From a phage: a stretch of 64,000 nt of DNA. Under the pieces are notes generated by a model, which was not told the DNA's origin, ran no database searches, and was given only the letters and a program-made list of their open reading frames with translations. Position 1 is the first letter of the stretch. Every line of letters begins with the position of its first letter. Location: NCBI GenBank assembly GCA_019338205.1, contig GCA_019338205.1_4761.1; one strand, written 5' to 3'. A program made the position numbers and the translations under genes. This document shows positions 43,763 to 52,138 of this stretch, piece by piece.

Positions 43763-44255
43763 TACATACGGCAAACTACGCTATGCCGATATTAAAGATT
43801 GTGATATGGTTAACGGTGAGGGAGTGAGAGTCTCCCTTTACGTTACCGGATGTTCACACGCATGTGATGGTTGCTTTAATGCTAGCCTACTCAATCCTAA
43901 GAACGGGGAACCATTCACCGATGATACAATGGGATTGATTCTGGATCTGCTTAGACCTGATTTTATTCAGGGGCTAACATTCTTAGGTGGCGATCCACTG
44001 TATAAACGCAATTTAAAGGGTGTACAGCGGATCATCGATGAAGTAAAATCATGGATGCCAAATAAAGATATTTGGCTATGGTCTGGTTATACCCTTGACC
44101 AATTGAATGATGAGCAAAGAAAAATTGTAGAATCAGTTGACATGTTCATTGATGGGCGTTATATTAAAGATATGCCAACGAAGAAGCCGTGGCGGGGGTC
44201 TGACAATCAAGTACAATACAAGATTGTTAATAGTATTCCAGTGAAAATTATTTGA
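43752..44255 (+). CDS. nrdG: anaerobic ribonucleotide reductase activating protein NrdG (radical SAM)
   Basis: CSHACDGC (C-x3-C-x2-C) radical-SAM cluster motif; 167 aa. Confidence 0.9.
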   Translation: MSSDTYGKLRYADIKDCDMVNGEGVRVSLYVTGCSHACDGCFNASLLNPKNGEPFTDDTMGLILDLLRPDFIQGLTFLGGDPLYKRNLKGVQRIIDEVKSWMPNKDIWLWSGYTLDQLNDEQRKIVESVDMFIDGRYIKDMPTKKPWRGSDNQVQYKIVNSIPVKII

Positions 44256-44265
44256 GGTGATTATT

Positions 44266-44793
44266 ATGAAATGGGAAGTTGGTAAAACTTACAAGATTGA
44301 ATGCGAAGCGTCGAAAGCCGAACTAACTAAATTTTCGTCGTCTATTAACAGATGTATTGTTGACTTGTTGGCTGGTCGCCCGTTTAGGGTAGAAGACCTT
44401 GACGATGATGGTGATGTTAGAGAAATTACTGTTATTGGTAGTAATTTCGACTCTATGACGTTAAAAGAATCCCCTATTGGCTGTTCCGGCGTGTGGTTTT
44501 GGTCGGGTGAGCGTCGTTTCTTTACCGAAGTTACTATTGAACCTAAGATTCCAGATTCGGAAGAAAAAGAAGAAGACCTAACTTTAGAACGCCTGGGTCT
44601 GCTTATGGAAGCCTACGACATTCAGTTGATCGATAAGATGGGGTTACATAATAGCATTGCCAAAATTACTACCCTAGAAGGTATTAAGAGCGTACTGGAT
44701 GGTATGCCTAGCCGGATCGGTGCTATCCGAGAATACAAACAAACGCGCGACCGTATGATCCAATTAGAATCACGTATCAAAAATGAGAGATGA
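44266..44793 (+). CDS. KWEVGKTY-family protein (nrdD-flanking multigene family)
   Basis: MKWEVGKTY...RPFRV...WFWSGERRFFTEV plus helical tail. Confidence 0.5.
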   Translation: MKWEVGKTYKIECEASKAELTKFSSSINRCIVDLLAGRPFRVEDLDDDGDVREITVIGSNFDSMTLKESPIGCSGVWFWSGERRFFTEVTIEPKIPDSEEKEEDLTLERLGLLMEAYDIQLIDKMGLHNSIAKITTLEGIKSVLDGMPSRIGAIREYKQTRDRMIQLESRIKNER

Positions 44794-44797
44794 TATT

Positions 44798-45262
44798 ATG
44801 AAATGGGAAGTTGGTAAAACCTATGCGTGGAAAGATGTAAAAGATGCAAACCAATTTTTTAAATGGTATGATGTTGATTATTTGAAATATCTGAGATTAC
44901 CGTTTAAAGTTGCGTCGGTTGATGCGAAAAAAGGATACGTGCGGTCTGTATATCTTCATGATGGAACTTATATGAGTTCAACCGATGTAGGTCTATCTTG
45001 TTGGTTTCTGGATCATGACCGTAGCAGATTTGAAGAAATTATTATTCCAGAAGAATCTAAATTAATTGATCTTCTCAAGTTGGCGATGGATAATTATAAA
45101 ATCCGCTTTGAATGCAAATCACATGCGGCTATCGGTGCTAACGCATTGCGTCATATCTCCAGTTTTGAAGAGTTGAAAGATTTTCTTGACAAAATGCCGG
45201 AAAGAGTGCAAGCTATACAGGAAGCAGAGAAAGCATTAAACGAACTTGATAAAATCGGTTAA
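44798..45262 (+). CDS. KWEVGKTY-family protein
   Basis: MKWEVGKTYAWKD...CWFLDHDRSRFEEI plus tail ELKDFLDKMPERV. Confidence 0.5.
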   Translation: MKWEVGKTYAWKDVKDANQFFKWYDVDYLKYLRLPFKVASVDAKKGYVRSVYLHDGTYMSSTDVGLSCWFLDHDRSRFEEIIIPEESKLIDLLKLAMDNYKIRFECKSHAAIGANALRHISSFEELKDFLDKMPERVQAIQEAEKALNELDKIG

Positions 45263-45274
45263 GGGGAATATATT

Positions 45275-46099
45275 ATGAAATGGGAAATTGGTAAAACTTA
45301 CACCTGGAAAGACGAAAACGCTAAAACTGAGTTTATTACTAACGGAGAAGGTGTTCTTTCTCCACTTAACAGCGATATTAGTGCAGCTATTGGTGACAAG
45401 CCATTTACCATCATCGAGATCGAGGGTAACGGTTGGATTGATGCAATAGAGCTAGACGGTGTTTATCATACGGCGAAAACTGCTACAGGAAAAGACATTT
45501 GGACTGCAACATATTTCTTTAGTCCATTCGATAGAAAATTCTTTCGTGAAGTTGAAGAAGTTCCCCAGAAATGGGAAGTTGGTAAAACTTATACTTGGAA
45601 AGATGTGAATGCTATGACAGACTTCTGCCATTATGCTGAAAACGCATCTAACCTTAATTATGTTATTGCACGAGCAATAAATTATAGACCTTTTACTGTT
45701 AAAAATGTTCGTCCATGTGGGCAAATTGATGTAATTGAAATTGATGGTAAAGACCATACTCTAATGAGCGCAACCGAAGATAGAGACCATAAAGGAACTA
45801 GCTGGTTTATTGATTCTGATAGAAAATTCTTTCGTGAAGTAGAAGAATTGGAAGTTATAACCACTGATTCTAAGATCGTTGGACAGTTGAAACGTCTGTT
45901 TAGTAGTCGTTACGGCCTGACAATGGTTAAATTTGGCGAAGCAAATGAAGGTAAAACCTTTGAACGTTTCGATGATTTCATTGCGGCACTTGACAAGATG
46001 GATGAAATCATGCAAGATCGCCAGAAGATTAAAGACCTTCAAGAAGACATTAAACGTCGTGAAGTTGAATTTTTGATTGGTAAAGAGCGAGGTTGGTAA
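45275..46099 (+). CDS. KWEVGKTY-family protein with two tandem modules
   Basis: two copies of KWE(I/V)GKTYTWKD...DRKFFREVEE module plus helical tail. Confidence 0.5.
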   Translation: MKWEIGKTYTWKDENAKTEFITNGEGVLSPLNSDISAAIGDKPFTIIEIEGNGWIDAIELDGVYHTAKTATGKDIWTATYFFSPFDRKFFREVEEVPQKWEVGKTYTWKDVNAMTDFCHYAENASNLNYVIARAINYRPFTVKNVRPCGQIDVIEIDGKDHTLMSATEDRDHKGTSWFIDSDRKFFREVEELEVITTDSKIVGQLKRLFSSRYGLTMVKFGEANEGKTFERFDDFIAALDKMDEIMQDRQKIKDLQEDIKRREVEFLIGKERGW

Positions 46100-46100
46100 T

Positions 46101-46583
46101 ATGTTTGTTGCTGGCGTGACCTATCAGTGGAAAGATAAGAAAACGAGAGAAGATTTTGCAAACTTTAGCGTTGCAAATGATGCAATAGCAGAGTTTATAG
46201 GCGACCGTCCATTTAAAGTTATCGCATTTGATCACCATGCATCGGATGTTGATTATGTTTCTGCGATTGAAATTGATGGCACGGTATACACCTGCTGCAA
46301 TGTTGATGATGTACGGGAATACGCGCACAACTGGTTTTTGCAATCAGAAGAACGTCATTTTAAAGTGGTATCGGCAGAACTGACCACTGATGCAATGTTG
46401 GAACAATTTTTCAACAACTACGAAGTTTCTGTACGTCGATACGGTGAAGAGGAAGTATTTAAAATTGATGACTATAATCAGTTTAAACGAGTATTCGCCA
46501 CTAAGATCCAACGTGATATTGAACGCGAGAAGCGCATTAAGGAACTGGAAGAAGAACTAGAAAGATTAAAGGCTGAGAAATGA
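46101..46583 (+). CDS. KWEVGKTY-family protein (divergent)
   Basis: GVTYQWKD...RPFKV...NWFLQSEERHFKVV plus coiled-coil tail. Confidence 0.5.
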   Translation: MFVAGVTYQWKDKKTREDFANFSVANDAIAEFIGDRPFKVIAFDHHASDVDYVSAIEIDGTVYTCCNVDDVREYAHNWFLQSEERHFKVVSAELTTDAMLEQFFNNYEVSVRRYGEEEVFKIDDYNQFKRVFATKIQRDIEREKRIKELEEELERLKAEK

Positions 46584-46849
46584 TCGAGATATACGGTATA
46601 CCGAAAGAGGCTTATCATTGTTATGGTTGTATTAGTGCAATGAAGCTACTGGATGATCTGGGTATTCCGTATACACTTAAACCAGTATTCAAGCCGGTCG
46701 GGGTTGACATTATTCCCGACCGTGATATGATTGAAGAACTGGCGGGGAGGCTAAACTCAAAGAGCCTCCGGTTTGTATACCCCCAGATATTCATTGACAA
46801 CGAGCACATTGGAGGCTATAAAGAACTGAGGGCGATTTATGATTATTGA
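46580..46849 (+). CDS. nrdH: glutaredoxin-like protein NrdH
   Basis: CYGC active site; PQIFIDNEHIGGY glutaredoxin motif. Confidence 0.8.
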   Translation: MIEIYGIPKEAYHCYGCISAMKLLDDLGIPYTLKPVFKPVGVDIIPDRDMIEELAGRLNSKSLRFVYPQIFIDNEHIGGYKELRAIYDY

Positions 46850-46997
46850 GAATTTAGTTTCGGTGTTCATTATTGCTTTATTTGCTATAATGACTTTACC
46901 GTTGAAGAAGTGTAAGCACTGTAACGGAACAGGATTGCGTGGTGATGGGTGTTGCGCTCATTGTCATGGATCTGGTAAAGTAAGTATCATTAAGTAA
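46839..46997 (+). CDS. small membrane-anchored protein with DnaJ-type CxxCxGxG zinc-finger repeats (52 aa)
   Basis: ATG overlapping nrdH end; TM helix then CKHCNGTG...CAHCHGSG; below ORF-track cut-off. Confidence 0.35.
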   Translation: MIIENLVSVFIIALFAIMTLPLKKCKHCNGTGLRGDGCCAHCHGSGKVSIIK

Positions 46998-47018
46998 TTC
47001 TTGAGTGAGGAATATATT

Positions 47019-47306
47019 ATGTTAGTACACAATGCAATCGCACACATGGTTTATTCTCGATTTGGGCGCATGGAAGAAATCAATATTACCGACGCAGATT
47101 TAGATCTGATGCAAGTCGAAGGCCAGACATATCTGAAAAATAACGGCGTGAATATCGGTAAAGCGCGTGTGCGTGAATTGTTAGTTGAATATATTCTCTC
47201 TGAATTTGGCATTAGTGCTTTCGGTGTGAAAGAGATTGCACCTAAGCGCGAAATTTCTGATAAAATGATCAAGAAATGCCAGAAAGCACGACGTAAGGGT
47301 TTCTAA
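47019..47306 (+). CDS. hypothetical protein (95 aa)
   Basis: ATG 47019 with SD GAGGAA. Confidence 0.45.
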   Translation: MLVHNAIAHMVYSRFGRMEEINITDADLDLMQVEGQTYLKNNGVNIGKARVRELLVEYILSEFGISAFGVKEIAPKREISDKMIKKCQKARRKGF

Positions 47307-48775
47307 TGAAGATTGAAACATTAATTGCATTGCCAGCGGCGGGGAAAACTGATGCTATACTTTCCCACGTCCTAGAGACAAAAGAAAAAGCGGTTATTGC
47401 TTCGCCATCTCGTGTTTTAAGTGAACAATCTTACAATAAGTTTAAAAGAATGGGCGGTCGTGCTGTCTTGATTGATAGCACAAGACTAAGAAGCCTTAAG
47501 ACAGTGCAAGCGTCGATAATGCAATCAGTTAAAGACGGTGCTGATGTGATATTCATTACACATACAGCGTTATCTAATATGGAACGTTCAAAAATGTTTG
47601 GTGAATATGCTCTTTACATTGATGAAGTTCCTCAACTGGTTGAATTTAATGAGTATCCGTTTAAGTCTAATCTTGAACTTATCACGAAGCATTGCGAACC
47701 AATCGCCGACGAATCGGAATGCCTACAGAACTTAGTTCTAAAAGACTCTGAGAAGGCCGTTATCAAAGAAAAGATAGAAAGTGCAAAGGATGGTACTGAT
47801 ATGATCGATTCTTCTCTTAGAGGGCTTTATGAGGCGTTATTAGAGAAGAAAATCAACGTTATGGTAAAACATAACGAAGGACACCGGAAGAATGGGTCGA
47901 AAATTGTTTTCTTGAACGATAACAAACACGGTACGTGGGGAGACTTTAAAAAGGTTACGATAGCATGTGCAAATCTCTTTGATACATATAGCGGGAAGTA
48001 TCTACGATACTATGCAAATTGCGATTTTGTTCCGAGTGCGCTAGAATCCAGACTATATTTCAAAGAGTATAAAAATACAGATAGAGTTAATATCATCCTT
48101 ATGACGGACTCTGAACGATGGTCGCGTCACCAGTCAGAAACAAACAATACCTTTGAACGTCTTGTTGATATGGTTAAAAATGAATGTGGCGATGACTTCA
48201 TTTATACCGTGAATCGGGACCGAGAAGCGTGTACAAATGGTATTGGTGAGCGGATACCTTACGGATCTTATGGTCTTAACTCTTACATTCATCATAAAAA
48301 TGTTGCTGTGATGTTCAGCTTTAACCCGCAACGATGGGAGATTGATATTTTAAAAGGTCTTGCTAATAGTTGTGATCTCCCGACAAACGAGTTTTTGAAA
48401 GCGCGTCATGTGTCTGATTATCTGGAACCAGCATTTCAATTATGTTTGCGTTGTAACCTGAGAGACAACGAGAGCAAGGAGAATGTTAATCTATATGTTC
48501 CTGATTTGGCGTTGGTAGATTATCTAAAAACGTTTCTACCTGATGCCAATGTAATAACAGACCGAATGATTCCGCTAGAATGTGGTGAGCGTAAAGGGCG
48601 AAAATCATTTAAAAAGATGTTCGATTTTAACGAGCAAGAGAATGCAAGATTTAACGGATTTAAGTACCGCATGAAGAAAAAGGGAAAAACTCTTGATCCG
48701 TCTGACGGTGAATCTGTAGAGATGGTTAGAGTGTGGATAACTAAGCAAAGAAAGTATAATGGTAATGGGGAATAG
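47306..48775 (+). CDS. P-loop NTPase of unknown function (489 aa)
   Basis: Walker A LPAAGKTDA and Walker B ALYIDEVP; no counterpart recognised at this position in T4. Confidence 0.55.
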   Translation: MKIETLIALPAAGKTDAILSHVLETKEKAVIASPSRVLSEQSYNKFKRMGGRAVLIDSTRLRSLKTVQASIMQSVKDGADVIFITHTALSNMERSKMFGEYALYIDEVPQLVEFNEYPFKSNLELITKHCEPIADESECLQNLVLKDSEKAVIKEKIESAKDGTDMIDSSLRGLYEALLEKKINVMVKHNEGHRKNGSKIVFLNDNKHGTWGDFKKVTIACANLFDTYSGKYLRYYANCDFVPSALESRLYFKEYKNTDRVNIILMTDSERWSRHQSETNNTFERLVDMVKNECGDDFIYTVNRDREACTNGIGERIPYGSYGLNSYIHHKNVAVMFSFNPQRWEIDILKGLANSCDLPTNEFLKARHVSDYLEPAFQLCLRCNLRDNESKENVNLYVPDLALVDYLKTFLPDANVITDRMIPLECGERKGRKSFKKMFDFNEQENARFNGFKYRMKKKGKTLDPSDGESVEMVRVWITKQRKYNGNGE

Positions 48776-48815
48776 CCCGAAAGGGTTATTTCCTAAATAA
48801 TAGCGAGGGTGCGAA

Positions 48816-49349
48816 GTGTCTGATTATGTAAACAATAAAGAGCTTTACGAAGAAATTTGCCGTTGGAAACAACAAATTGCAGCAGAAGGTCGGCAAGTTC
48901 CAATGAGCGATCAAATCGGCCTAGCAATTATGCAAATCTCTAAAAATCTATCACGTCGTTTTAACTTTTCTGGTTATAGTCAAACATGGCGCGAAGAAAT
49001 GATCGACGACGGAATCGAAGCGGCGGTCAAGGGTTTGATTAATTTTGACGAGACAAAGTATAAAAATCCTCATGCTTACATCACGCAAGCGTGCTTTAAT
49101 GCTTTTGTACAGCGCATTAAAAAAGAGAGAACAGCGACAGCCGCAAAATACAAATATTTTGTGCATCATGTATATGACGAACGCGACGCTGATATGTGCC
49201 AGATTGCTGATGAGGCATTCATACAGGACATTTACGATAAAATCAACAACTACGAGGAATCGGTCAATAAACCGAAAGCGCCAAAGGTTGAAGATGTATT
49301 GACCGAGGAATTGCCTAGCCTGGACCAATTTTATGAGATTGAAAATTAA
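48816..49349 (+). CDS. 55: late transcription sigma factor gp55
   Basis: 177 aa; [16 protein letters not shown]-terminus typical of gp55; position between nrdH and gene 47. Confidence 0.85.
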
Positions 49350-49566
49350 CATTTCCCGTTTGCTGGAAGAAGCAGAGTTTGAAACTGACCTTGTGCCGTA
49401 TTTCGCCAAATTATTTTTGAGAGATTGCGGCGTTCCGGTGATTATCGATCCGTGCAATATCAAATCACCGGATCTTGAGGTCTTTACGGGTACAATCTCA
49501 CATAGCTATAATGTATCAGAAGATGAATTTTCTTTAATAATTGATTATATCCCAGAAGGAAAATAA
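49333..49566 (+). CDS. hypothetical protein (77 aa)
   Basis: ORF track. Confidence 0.4.
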
Positions 49567-49567
49567 C

Positions 49568-49855
49568 ATGACTTACGATGAACAGCATGACCAGATTGCA
49601 GTGAATGAAGTAGACAAAGTACAAGCAGAACTAGAGGCTAAAGCCGCTAAGAAAGCGGAAAAGATCTTGCGTAAGAACTCGCGAGAGATTGCACGCCTTA
49701 AGCGGTGGGCTGAACAAGCTATCATCGATGATAACCGTGATGCGTATATCTACGCTATCGGAAAGTTACGTGATATCTATAAACAGCCACACACGCCAGA
49801 ACTGCTTTCTGCTATGTGGATTAGTACACGGCAAACGGTATTAAGTATGCTGTAA
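49568..49855 (+). CDS. hypothetical protein (95 aa)
   Basis: ORF track frame; ATG 49568. Confidence 0.4.
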   Translation: MTYDEQHDQIAVNEVDKVQAELEAKAAKKAEKILRKNSREIARLKRWAEQAIIDDNRDAYIYAIGKLRDIYKQPHTPELLSAMWISTRQTVLSML

Positions 49856-49866
49856 TGGCTTTATAA

Positions 49867-49900
49867 GGGAGACTCCGAAAGGGGTTTCCCTTTTTATTTT
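49867..49900 (+). terminator. intrinsic terminator
   Basis: gggagac/gtttccc stem with one G-U pair, then TTTTTATTTT. Confidence 0.6.
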
Positions 49901-49945
49901 TCTATGATATAGTGAGAGCATCGAAAACGAAGAGAGGAAGAGACT

Positions 49946-50971
49946 ATGAAAATTTTGCTTTTAGGTGATCTGCATACTGGCATCGGTGGCGATGATCCGT
50001 GGGTGCATGAATATATTTTAGACACGATCAAGAAAGCGGTTGATTATTCTAAAGAAAACGGTATTAAGATATGGATTCAAACAGGGGATTGGTTTGATTG
50101 TCGCAAGGCTATCACACATGAAACCATGAAATTTAACCGTACTAAGGTCATCCCATTACTGGAAGAGGCAGGAATCACCTGTTATATCACGGTCGGGAAT
50201 CATGATATGTTTAAGCGCAATAAGATCCAGCCTAACTCGCCGCGTGAAGTGTTAAGCCAGTATGATTGCATTAAGGTTATTGATAAGCCGGAAACAGTTA
50301 CCTTTGATGGGGTATCATTCGACCTGTTCCCGTGGTTTTGTGATGACAATAAATCCGAGGTTTTAGAGTTTATTCAAAATTCATTCAGCGAATATTGTGT
50401 AGGCCATTGGGAGTTGTCCGGCTACTATTTCTATAAAGGGTTAAAATCCGAAGGTTATAGCGCGGACTTCCTCAAGAAATACCGTGAAGTGTTTTCCGGT
50501 CACTTTCATACTATCAGTGATGGCGGTAACGTAACGTATATAGGTACACCATACACACTAACGGCGGGTGACGAAAACGATCCGCGTGGTTTTTGGGTAT
50601 TCGATACAGATACACACAAAAAGGAGTTTATCCAGAATGACAAAACTTATCATGTGCGTATCACTTACCCGTCAGATGATAAAATCGATGTAGAACGCTT
50701 TAAAGGGCTTAGTGTGCGCCTAATTGCAACGGTCGCTGATAATGGGTTAACTAAGTTAGAAAGCGCGTTAGAGGCCGTTGTACACAAGCTAAAAGTGGTC
50801 CATAAGCTGGAGAGTAGCGCATCACAGGAAACAGGTGTTATTGAAGTTAAAAGCACTATTCAGATGGTCTATGAATATCTGGAAGAACAAAACCTAGAAC
50901 CGGAAGAACTTGCGGCAGTTAAGCGTATCTCTGATGAACTTTTAGCCGAAGTAAATAGCGCAAAAAGTTAG
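49946..50971 (+). CDS. 47: recombination endonuclease subunit gp47 (Mre11/SbcD-like)
   Basis: phosphoesterase motifs GDLH, GNHD, GHFH; 341 aa versus T4 339 aa. Confidence 0.93.
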   Translation: MKILLLGDLHTGIGGDDPWVHEYILDTIKKAVDYSKENGIKIWIQTGDWFDCRKAITHETMKFNRTKVIPLLEEAGITCYITVGNHDMFKRNKIQPNSPREVLSQYDCIKVIDKPETVTFDGVSFDLFPWFCDDNKSEVLEFIQNSFSEYCVGHWELSGYYFYKGLKSEGYSADFLKKYREVFSGHFHTISDGGNVTYIGTPYTLTAGDENDPRGFWVFDTDTHKKEFIQNDKTYHVRITYPSDDKIDVERFKGLSVRLIATVADNGLTKLESALEAVVHKLKVVHKLESSASQETGVIEVKSTIQMVYEYLEEQNLEPEELAAVKRISDELLAEVNSAKS

Positions 50972-51000
50972 TTGACGCGGGGAGAAATCCCCGTTATACT
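50972..51000 (+). promoter_or_regulatory. early promoter cassette with spacer hairpin (TTGACG-cgggga.tccccg-TATACT)
   Basis: TTGACG 50972-50977, TATACT 50995-51000. Confidence 0.55.
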
Positions 51001-51025
51001 CTCTAAAAATTGATGGGAGGTTATT

Positions 51026-51277
51026 ATGATTACTGACACACTGAAAGAATTTAACGCAAGTTTAGAGAAGTTTACTAAGATCCGAGTTTTTGAGGTTGTT
51101 CGGAATGGTCAACATATGCTATCCTTCCGTTCTAATTACGGGATGTGGACACATGATGAAATTCCTTTCGACCGAGACAATATCACTAGACTGGAACTAG
51201 CAACCATCGTATCCCGTAAGGTTGCTGATATTACCCAGAATGTTATTGCTCGTGGGTCTATGGAGTCTGTACGATGA
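51026..51277 (+). CDS. hypothetical protein (83 aa)
   Basis: ORF track. Confidence 0.45.
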   Translation: MITDTLKEFNASLEKFTKIRVFEVVRNGQHMLSFRSNYGMWTHDEIPFDRDNITRLELATIVSRKVADITQNVIARGSMESVR

Positions 51278-51591
51278 AAACACTTGCACAAAAAGTAATG
51301 GAATTTAATGCAGCGTTGCCTATGTTTGCTCGCCGTAAGGGGATCTCCGTTGATGTATGGTATTCCAAAGAGCATGAAGAAGTTCGGATGATGCTCGAAA
51401 AGCGACTCACTGACACTACCGTTAAGTGTAAGTTTCGCTCTATTCCTCGCGATGAAATAGAATTTGATGAAAGCTATTACTTTACGCTGCGTCATGTGCT
51501 GAAACAAGCAATGGATGAACTTTTAGAAGACCTGAAACAATATGAGATTGAAGGGGGAACATATTATGAATACGACTATGGTCGCGGCTGA
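51274..51591 (+). CDS. hypothetical protein (105 aa)
   Basis: ORF track; ATGA overlap. Confidence 0.45.
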   Translation: MKTLAQKVMEFNAALPMFARRKGISVDVWYSKEHEEVRMMLEKRLTDTTVKCKFRSIPRDEIEFDESYYFTLRHVLKQAMDELLEDLKQYEIEGGTYYEYDYGRG

Positions 51592-52138
51592 TCCAGATAA
51601 ATTGGTAATGCAACATTTTATTACGCTGTTGCATAACTACACGATAAAACAATCACATTACAAGAATCCGATTTATGGTTATCTGAAAGCGAATATTTCA
51701 TCTACGTGGGGTCAGCCAGTGGTTAAGCTGTATTATGATGATGGTTATCATCGTTATCTTAAAGTGATACATCCACAAGAATTGATGATCAATATGGATA
51801 TGGGCGTATTTGTAAAAGACAAAGTAGAATCCATTATTAAGAGTGTGGTTGGTGAATATAATCCGATTGTATATGGTGCTTTCGTACAGTGGAAACAATC
51901 CAGCAAGTATTATTTTCCGAATACTCCATTGACGTTAACAGGTTGGATCTCTGTCATGCATAGTGGGGTATTCCTGGAAGCGTCAGAGACAATGTATAAA
52001 GGGTATATTCTCCCACATCGACTGGTGAAGTGTGATTATCGCTTGACTGTAGGTGAATTTCGCGATATTCTGGAACAACAAGCGGAAGACCTGCAAGGTG
52101 AAATTGAAGAATTTTTAGAGGAACATAAACTAAAATGA
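51566..52138 (+). CDS. hypothetical protein (190 aa)
   Basis: ORF track frame; ATG 51566. Confidence 0.45.
   Translation: MNTTMVAADPDKLVMQHFITLLHNYTIKQSHYKNPIYGYLKANISSTWGQPVVKLYYDDGYHRYLKVIHPQELMINMDMGVFVKDKVESIIKSVVGEYNPIVYGAFVQWKQSSKYYFPNTPLTLTGWISVMHSGVFLEASETMYKGYILPHRLVKCDYRLTVGEFRDILEQQAEDLQGEIEEFLEEHKLK

Follow-up and report, generated by a model that had tools for sequence, protein, structure and literature searches.

A predicted stand-alone superfamily 2 helicase encoded beside a 55.2 homolog in an RB49-like phage

The window, a 64,000-nucleotide stretch of phage DNA (NCBI GenBank assembly GCA_019338205.1, contig GCA_019338205.1_4761.1), belongs to an RB49-like relative of T4 (Krischvirus). 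Between nrdH (46580..46849) and gene 55 (48816..49349) it carries an open reading frame (ORF) of 489 amino acids (aa), separated from nrdH by two small ORFs, the product of which is predicted to be a helicase of superfamily 2 (SF2). A DNA search showed the 8-kb stretch around this ORF to be 95–97% identical to Krischvirus genomes, among them PHB13, RB49, and kaaroe.

Coding sequence and helicase motifs

47306..48775, + strand: 489-aa SF2 helicase-type ATPase gene (RB49 ORF044c, Phi1 ORF044; PHROG 2467)

The frame comprises 489 codons from an ATG start to a TAG stop, with an AAGGG Shine-Dalgarno-like sequence 6 nt 5′ of the ATG. All other frames of the interval hold ORFs of 65 aa or less, and the G+C content (0.384–0.388) is the same as that of the neighboring genes. 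The ORF is a real gene, with a length far beyond chance. Its product matches PHROG 2467, a phage family without assigned function, over the full length (E = 1e-173). Homologs were found by tblastn in 244 phage records, 240 of which cover at least 80% of the query; identity was at least 95% in 59 records and below 60% in the other 185, and the 59 near-identical records equal in number the Krischvirus-like records from the DNA search. Among the matches listed, the annotation is “hypothetical protein” with a single exception, “DNA primase”; in phage W115, a “putative helicase” is annotated somewhere within the corresponding 8-kb stretch. The label “gp55.2,” which appears in tblastn rows, was rejected as a name for the gene, as it denotes the small gene upstream (ORF044 is the 489-aa ORF in Phi1). 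RB49ORF044c appeared in a 2006 listing with a DEAD/DEAH match in Pfam (E = 0.069; Nolan et al., 2006; PMC1524935). The gene, a putative helicase of T4 relatives other than the T-even phages, has long been catalogued and is uncharacterized; what this analysis adds is the full motif assignment, the XPD/DinG-like architecture lacking iron-sulfur (Fe-S) features, the apparent, conserved coupling to 55.2, and the kinship with helicases of genomic islands and with primase-like fusions.

Motifs were assigned on an alignment of 48 homologs with 32–98% identity (A1), and “invariant” refers to these 48 sequences unless the long forms are named. The alignment has 48 invariant columns, which fall into the SF2 motif series in canonical order:

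47330..47356, + strand: motif I (Walker A), LPAAGKTDA, residues 9–17; P10, G13, K14, and T15 invariant (PAAGKT, residues 10–15)
47402..47431, + strand: motif Ia-like, SPSRVLSEQS, residues 33–42; S33, L38, and S42 invariant; family consensus SxSRxLSxQS
47546..47572, + strand: motif Ib-like, VIFITHTAL, residues 81–89; V81, F83, T85, and L89 invariant; family consensus VIFITHxAL
47609..47632, + strand: motif II (Walker B), ALYIDEVP, residues 102–109; L103, D106, and E107 invariant; DExx type
47954..47977, + strand: motif III-like, VTIACANL; T218 and N223 at least 90% conserved; family consensus TIAxAN, residues 218–223
48197..48223, + strand: motif IV-like strand, FIYTVNRDR, residues 298–306; Y300, N303, and R306 invariant; family consensus FIYTxNxxR
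48269..48328, + strand: motif V/Va-like, YGLNSY ... NVAVMFSFNP; G323, N325, and N340 invariant; family consensus HGLN (V, residues 322–325) and NVAVLFSYNP (Va, residues 332–341)
48434..48463, + strand: motif VI, FQLCLRCNLR; Q378, R382, and R386 invariant; arginine-finger pattern Q..R...R; family consensus QLCxRxxxR, residues 378–386
48563..48772, + strand: C-terminal basic helical tail, residues 420–489; 18 K/R vs. 9 D/E; W477 invariant; linker 426–431 of low confidence

The Walker A and Walker B motifs were located where the original prediction had placed them, and its statement that no further helicase motifs could be assigned with confidence gives way to the alignment, in which Ia, Ib, III, IV, V, Va, and VI all find a place. 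Motif VI and the other SF2 motifs are likewise invariant in the long forms of the family, described below. Curated models recognize the protein sparingly. Pfam DEAD matches residues 11–130 with 27.4 bits at a gathering cut-off of 26, AAA_34 matches below threshold, and apart from these two and one spurious match Pfam returned nothing at E ≤ 1. Pfam Helicase_C has no match in the 489-aa protein and a weak one in 1 of 36 long forms, and an NCBIfam search with the protein found nothing.

Predicted fold and place within SF2

AlphaFold2 gave a confident model from A1 (predicted local distance difference test, pLDDT, 88.2; predicted template modeling score, pTM, 0.76), in which two alpha/beta lobes are accompanied by an insertion and end in a basic tail of helices. 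In the model and by structure comparison, the lobes are RecA-like and arranged in tandem, the C-terminal half forming one of them. The 489-aa protein is almost certainly an SF2 motor and, judging by its motifs and the model, probably a catalytically intact, complete, stand-alone SF2 helicase or translocase. The DEAD match and the two-lobe SF2 model bear out the earlier description of a helicase-like P-loop NTPase; the KAP- or terminase-like identity offered beside it agrees neither with this fold nor with the Pfam results at E ≤ 1.

47633..47950, + strand: insertion domain of ~105 residues (residues 110–215), between motifs II and III; strands and two long helices in the AlphaFold2 secondary structure

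The insertion is conserved throughout the wider family, and aligns in the long forms too. XPD and DinG align to the model over 310–350 residues, other two-lobe SF2 proteins over ~240–260, and the ~80 extra residues most likely correspond to the insertion. In XPD and DinG, the Arch domain is inserted into lobe 1 after motif II and before motif III; by analogy, residues 110–215 may be its equivalent. Membership of the 489-aa protein in the XPD/DinG family is not established. Comparison of A1 by hhalign with one sequence each for E. coli DinG, E. coli RhlE, and T4 UvsW yielded probabilities under 2%; a lone sequence makes too weak a template for this outcome to count for or against any subfamily. 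Structurally similar phage proteins are present in phiRSL1, Fnu1, Motura, and H101, all of them uncharacterized.

Genomic setting in phages and bacterial islands

47019..47306, + strand: 95-aa homolog of T4 gp55.2 (DUF7570), directly 5′ of the helicase gene
46961..46990, + strand: candidate sigma-70-type promoter, TTGTCA-18-TATCAT (10/12), ~30 nt 5′ of 55.2; weak

The 95-aa protein is 42% identical to T4 gp55.2 (E = 9e-20) and matches Pfam DUF7570 (E = 1.4e-28), in agreement with the annotation of Phi1. The TAA stop of its gene overlaps the ATG of the helicase gene (TAATG), and this arrangement suggests translational coupling of the two. In T4, gp55.2 inhibits relaxation by host topoisomerase I (PMC4396842); T4 55.2 was called an ORFan in that paper, and a Pfam family, DUF7570, now exists. 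The location between nrdH and gene 55 was correct in the original prediction, with the amendment that the helicase gene does not adjoin nrdH directly: a 52-aa ORF and the 55.2 homolog follow nrdH. Likewise correct was the statement that a gene of this size is missing from T4 at this position. The T4 order is nrdH, 55.6–55.3, 55.2, 55.1, and 55, with no helicase gene; it is the 87-aa 55.1 that sits between 55.2 and 55. Nor is the helicase gene orthologous to any T4 housekeeping gene whose function is defined.

The order nrdD/nrdG, nrdH, (55.2), helicase, 55, a-gt.4, 47, and 46 recurs in several genera of the Straboviridae, as seen in Phi1 (Krischvirus), PM2 (Bragavirus), Cronobacter phage S13, Aeromonas phage 65 (Ishigurovirus), and Aeromonas phage 31 (Biquartavirus). 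Homologs of 55.2 lie directly 5′ of the helicase gene in Krischvirus, RB16, PM2, S13, and phage 65, the upstream ORFs of PM2 and S13 falling in the same PHROGs as the 55.2 homolog of the window. RB16 keeps the 55.2-helicase pair, with gene 34 next downstream. In Aeromonas phage 31, the helicase gene is overlapped not by 55.2 but by the gene for a 187-aa “DprA-like recombination mediator” (L002, 3441..4004; PHROG 768, E = 5e-67), for which a Pfam search found nothing; that this could be a divergent 55.2 was ruled out, as the two share no similarity and belong to separate PHROGs. Identity between genera is 35–42% for the helicase, 41–49% for gp47, and 39–61% for gp55, with a broadly similar ranking of relatives. 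A divergence so close to that of gp47 and gp55 fits vertical inheritance, with loss in the T-even lineage, and not recent acquisition. These sequence comparisons do not bear out the suggestion of an accessory system, as the synteny is conserved, the divergence is that of a core gene, no defense model is matched, and no multi-gene system surrounds the gene. Phi1 also encodes dda, 41, 61, uvsX, and 43; with dda, 41, and 61 present, the helicase is additional to gp41 and Dda rather than a replacement for either. The helicase gene was also considered as a marker of phages lacking hydroxymethyl-cytosine, an idea that was rejected because phage 31 carries both the helicase gene and a gene 42 allele; such alleles are known from Aeromonas phages 44RR, 31, and 25 (PMC2993671).

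The promoter scan of the region gave 28 sites vs. 21.5 ± 4.2 in shuffled sequences, not clearly above chance, and the terminator scan of the region did not exceed the shuffled expectation. Within the 7-kb region, a single strong hairpin resembling an intrinsic terminator (49865..49895, + strand; 12-bp stem and T run) was found, 3′ of the a-gt.4-like ORF and 5′ of gene 47. Because it sits before gene 47, the genes 55.2, helicase, 55, and the a-gt.4-like ORF may form one transcription unit. The 52-aa ORF (46839..46997, + strand) overlaps the end of nrdH and encodes a hydrophobic N-terminus followed by a zinc-ribbon (CxxCxGxG...CxxCxGxG) that is similar to anti-TRAP and to the zinc finger of DnaJ (NCBIfam E ~1e-3; PHROG 3931). 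Further upstream, from nrdG to nrdH (44257..46583, + strand), four consecutive ORFs of 178, 159, 274, and 168 aa hold five copies of a paralogous N-terminal domain starting KWEVGKTYxWKD, two of them in the 274-aa ORF. The 178- and 274-aa ORFs, the two that were scanned, match PHROG 5347, of no known function; the 274-aa ORF also weakly matches PHROGs named “goF mRNA metabolism modulator.” In two close relatives, phages phiS and MIZ4, the region matching 44000..52000 of the window aligns as two pieces over ~8.6 kb of the record; the MIZ4 annotation of the stretch includes an HNH homing endonuclease gene, suggesting that mobile endonucleases move through the block.

Relatives extend far beyond the phages. 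A profile search of 1.84 billion representative proteins returned 1,369 relatives at E ≤ 1e-3, of which 805 were at E ≤ 1e-10. Lengths were taken from the best 150 relatives: 84 have 420–690 aa and 61 have at least 690 aa. Bacterial relatives bear the name “DEAD/DEAH box helicase family protein.” Between short and long forms, hhalign gives a probability of 100% (E = 2e-58) over 428 columns, the insertion included, and the long forms match both PHROG 2467 and PHROG 31024, neither with an assigned function. In the long forms sampled, a C-terminal extension of ~330 aa follows; the 489-aa protein lacks it, its alignment to the long forms ending at about residue 452, before the extension. The extension matches two PHROGs named “DNA primase,” PHROG 9765 in 13 of 20 members (best E = 2.7e-10) and PHROG 2135 in 6 of 20, and in 9 of 20 it matches residues 71–172 of PHROG 256 (“DNA helicase”). 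Pfam PriCT_1 matches 3 of 36 long forms, and there is no strong Pfam match for the extension. It has an invariant acidic pattern (LD-x-D/E ... GLD) reminiscent of the triad of archaeo-eukaryotic primases (AEP). A primase-like nature of the extension is moderately supported by these similarities. Proteins found with the extension profile are almost all unnamed, one UniRef name being “Primase C-terminal 1 domain.” As no Pfam, NCBIfam, or PDB sequence match was obtained, the extension may be an undescribed primase-related family. It also occurs as proteins of ~200–370 aa (P0256–P0316), many on short contigs and possibly fragments. A tblastn search with the extension against isolated phages gave no match; the jumbo phage Atu_ph07 carries a long form with the extension included (L014, 4995..7283).

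In bacteria, the helicase gene lies close downstream of an integrase gene in three contexts, with or without AlpA or HTH_17 between them. The first reads tyrosine integrase, HTH_17, 814-aa helicase, and cargo with PLD and Mrr; the second, integrase, AlpA, a small ORF, helicase, and DUF927; the third, in Pseudomonas citronellolis, integrase, 525-aa helicase, and an island with Kiwa, a methylase, and Vsr. Further relatives occur in other island-like settings. Integrative elements usually keep their replication functions just after the integrase. Two integrase-bounded islands are marked by bacterial helicase relatives (L015, 1..19578, Pseudomonas citronellolis; L007, 8168..20834); their cargo includes the Kiwa defense genes (KwaA/KwaB), a DNA methylase with Vsr, PLD-like and Mrr-like nucleases, and ADP-ribosylglycohydrolase/phosphatase fusions.

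Proposed role, alternatives, and known systems

The reading that we favor, and hold to be fairly probable, is that of an accessory DNA helicase of phage replication or recombination. ATP would be bound and hydrolyzed in the cleft of the two RecA-like lobes by K14/T15, D106/E107, Q378, and R382/R386. Because the insertion stands at the position of the Arch, the protein probably threads single-stranded DNA, which would pass through an arch-clamped, monomer-type motor as in XPD and DinG; XPD-like movement in the 5′→3′ direction is a tentative proposal by analogy. The helicase would be expressed together with the gp55.2 homolog, within the gene block leading from nrd through 55 and 47 to 46, and would work beside gp41 and Dda on replication and recombination intermediates (forks, D-loops, R-loops). 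A DNA rather than an RNA substrate, the polarity, the role in replication or recombination, and any functional tie to gp55.2 are inferred.

Several points weigh against this reading. PDB sequence searches with the single protein and with the A1 profile gave no usable match. The Fe-S cysteine set is absent: no cysteine is conserved in residues 42–103, and the invariant cysteines in A1 are C130 and C380. CasDinG and some DinG proteins are also devoid of the Fe-S cluster. The Pfam models DEAD_2 (PF06733) and Helicase_C_2 (PF13307) give no match at E ≤ 1. In motif Ia, the protein is similar to DEAD-box RNA helicases, which leaves room for an RNA substrate. T4 manages without the gene, so a T4-type replisome cannot depend on it. 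For the long-form extension, identity as a primase comes from PHROG names and weak PriCT_1 matches, with PDB, NCBIfam, and the rest of Pfam silent. The literature search found no biochemical or genetic study of any family member, the sole mention being the marginal Pfam match of 2006 (PMC1524935).

A broader version of the favored reading would define a hitherto unrecognized class of replication helicases of mobile elements: an XPD/DinG-like motor without Fe-S that in integrative islands and in Atu_ph07 is fused to a C-terminal AEP-type primase/PriCT module, and that many T4 relatives would keep as a bare motor beside gp41 and Dda, working with gp55.2 on supercoiling- or R-loop-dependent initiation. 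We regard this extension of the argument as speculative and unlikely.

Among the rival explanations, the one that survives best, although we judge it improbable, makes gp55.2 and the helicase a module for DNA topology and R-loops. In one variant, gp55.2 would block topoisomerase I, giving more negative supercoiling and R-loops that the helicase uses or clears, e.g., in R-loop-primed initiation; in another, the helicase would be tethered to topoisomerase I as a split, reverse-gyrase-like enzyme. The gene arrangement speaks for such a module, as the stop of the upstream gene and the helicase start overlap or nearly do so in every lineage examined, the upstream gene is a 55.2 homolog in five of them (see above), and the pair is intact in RB16 despite a different downstream gene. 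So do the activity of T4 gp55.2 toward topoisomerase I, the ability of DinG-type helicases to unwind R-loops and D-loops, and the promotion of R-loops by topA deficiency. However, each partner also occurs alone: T4 has 55.2 without the helicase, and Aeromonas phage 31 has the helicase with a DprA-like gene instead of 55.2. Adjacency in a long, co-oriented block of small genes is, moreover, a weak sign of partnership.

Quite improbable, in our estimate, is an origin-specific initiator helicase, an island-type Rep protein kept to open a particular phage origin. The bacterial contexts suit an initiator, with relatives right after integrase or integrase and AlpA, in the slot usual for initiators and primase-helicases; the long forms are fused to a primase-like module, and the basic C-terminal tail could bind DNA. 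Yet the phage protein is the short form without the primase-like domain, no recognizable sequence-specific DNA-binding domain was found in it, and the phage already encodes the gp41/gp61 replisome. T4-type initiation, furthermore, uses R-loops and recombination.

We give little credence to a DEAD-box-type RNA helicase or chaperone acting on phage or host transcripts, for which there are two arguments: DEAD is the sole Pfam family above threshold, and motif Ia (SPSRVLSEQS) is like PTRELAxQ. The rest of the protein departs from the DEAD-box pattern. Only 8 residues precede the P-loop, with no Q motif; motif II is DEVP and not DEAD, motif III CAN/AAN and not SAT, and motif VI QLCxRxxxR and not HRxGRxGR; and DEAD-box proteins do not have the 105-residue insertion of lobe 1. 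The XPD/DinG DNA helicases match better, and relatives are fused to a primase-like domain and located in DNA-mobility modules. Least credible of all is a KAP-, terminase-, or defense-helicase-like NTPase of defense or counter-defense: the islands of bacterial relatives do carry Kiwa, Mrr, and PLD, but the island gene sits by the integrase and not among the cargo, the best PADLOC match (E = 0.009, 60 residues) is to an unrelated model, Pfam KAP_NTPase and Terminase have no match at E ≤ 1, the protein has no nuclease or other effector domain, and the phage copies are vertically inherited inside a replication and nucleotide-metabolism block.

An accessory DNA helicase would matter because T4-type phages are a reference for replication and recombination, and the gene is kept in hundreds of relatives (RB49, RB16/RB43, 44RR/31, 65, PM2, and others). 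Showing what it unwinds would add a component to the T4-type toolkit for DNA metabolism; a known substrate might also explain how the topoisomerase I inhibitor gp55.2 is used, and some 1,400 related clusters from genomic islands of bacteria, where the gene occupies the replication slot and often has a primase-like fusion, would gain a function. If the helicase is merely redundant, the result is routine annotation.

Three known systems invite comparison. T4 UvsW is, like the 489-aa protein, a stand-alone SF2 DNA helicase of ~500 aa from the same virus family. Its locus differs from that of the helicase described here and, UvsW is not known to carry an insertion after motif II; according to the annotation of the T4 record, it acts on R-loops and branched DNA. 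XPD, Rad3, and DinG, including CasDinG of type IV CRISPR, resemble the 489-aa protein in their two RecA-like lobes, in a large lobe-1 insertion that separates motif II from motif III, and in the types of motif II (DExx) and motif VI (Q..R..R). In contrast to XPD and DinG, the 489-aa protein is devoid of a 4Fe-4S domain and of N-terminal or accessory domains, its P-loop starting at residue 10; sequence identity is 9–15%, with a TM-score of ~0.5. The primase-helicases with which integrative elements and satellites replicate (P4 alpha and the AEP-D5/SF3 type) resemble the bacterial relatives in occupying the slot after integrase, with or without AlpA, and the long forms in joining a helicase with a primase-like domain. 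The order of the long forms is reversed relative to these systems, with the helicase N-terminal and the primase-like domain C-terminal, and the motor is of the monomer-type SF2 and not a hexameric SF3/SF4; the protein of the window has no primase-like domain at all.

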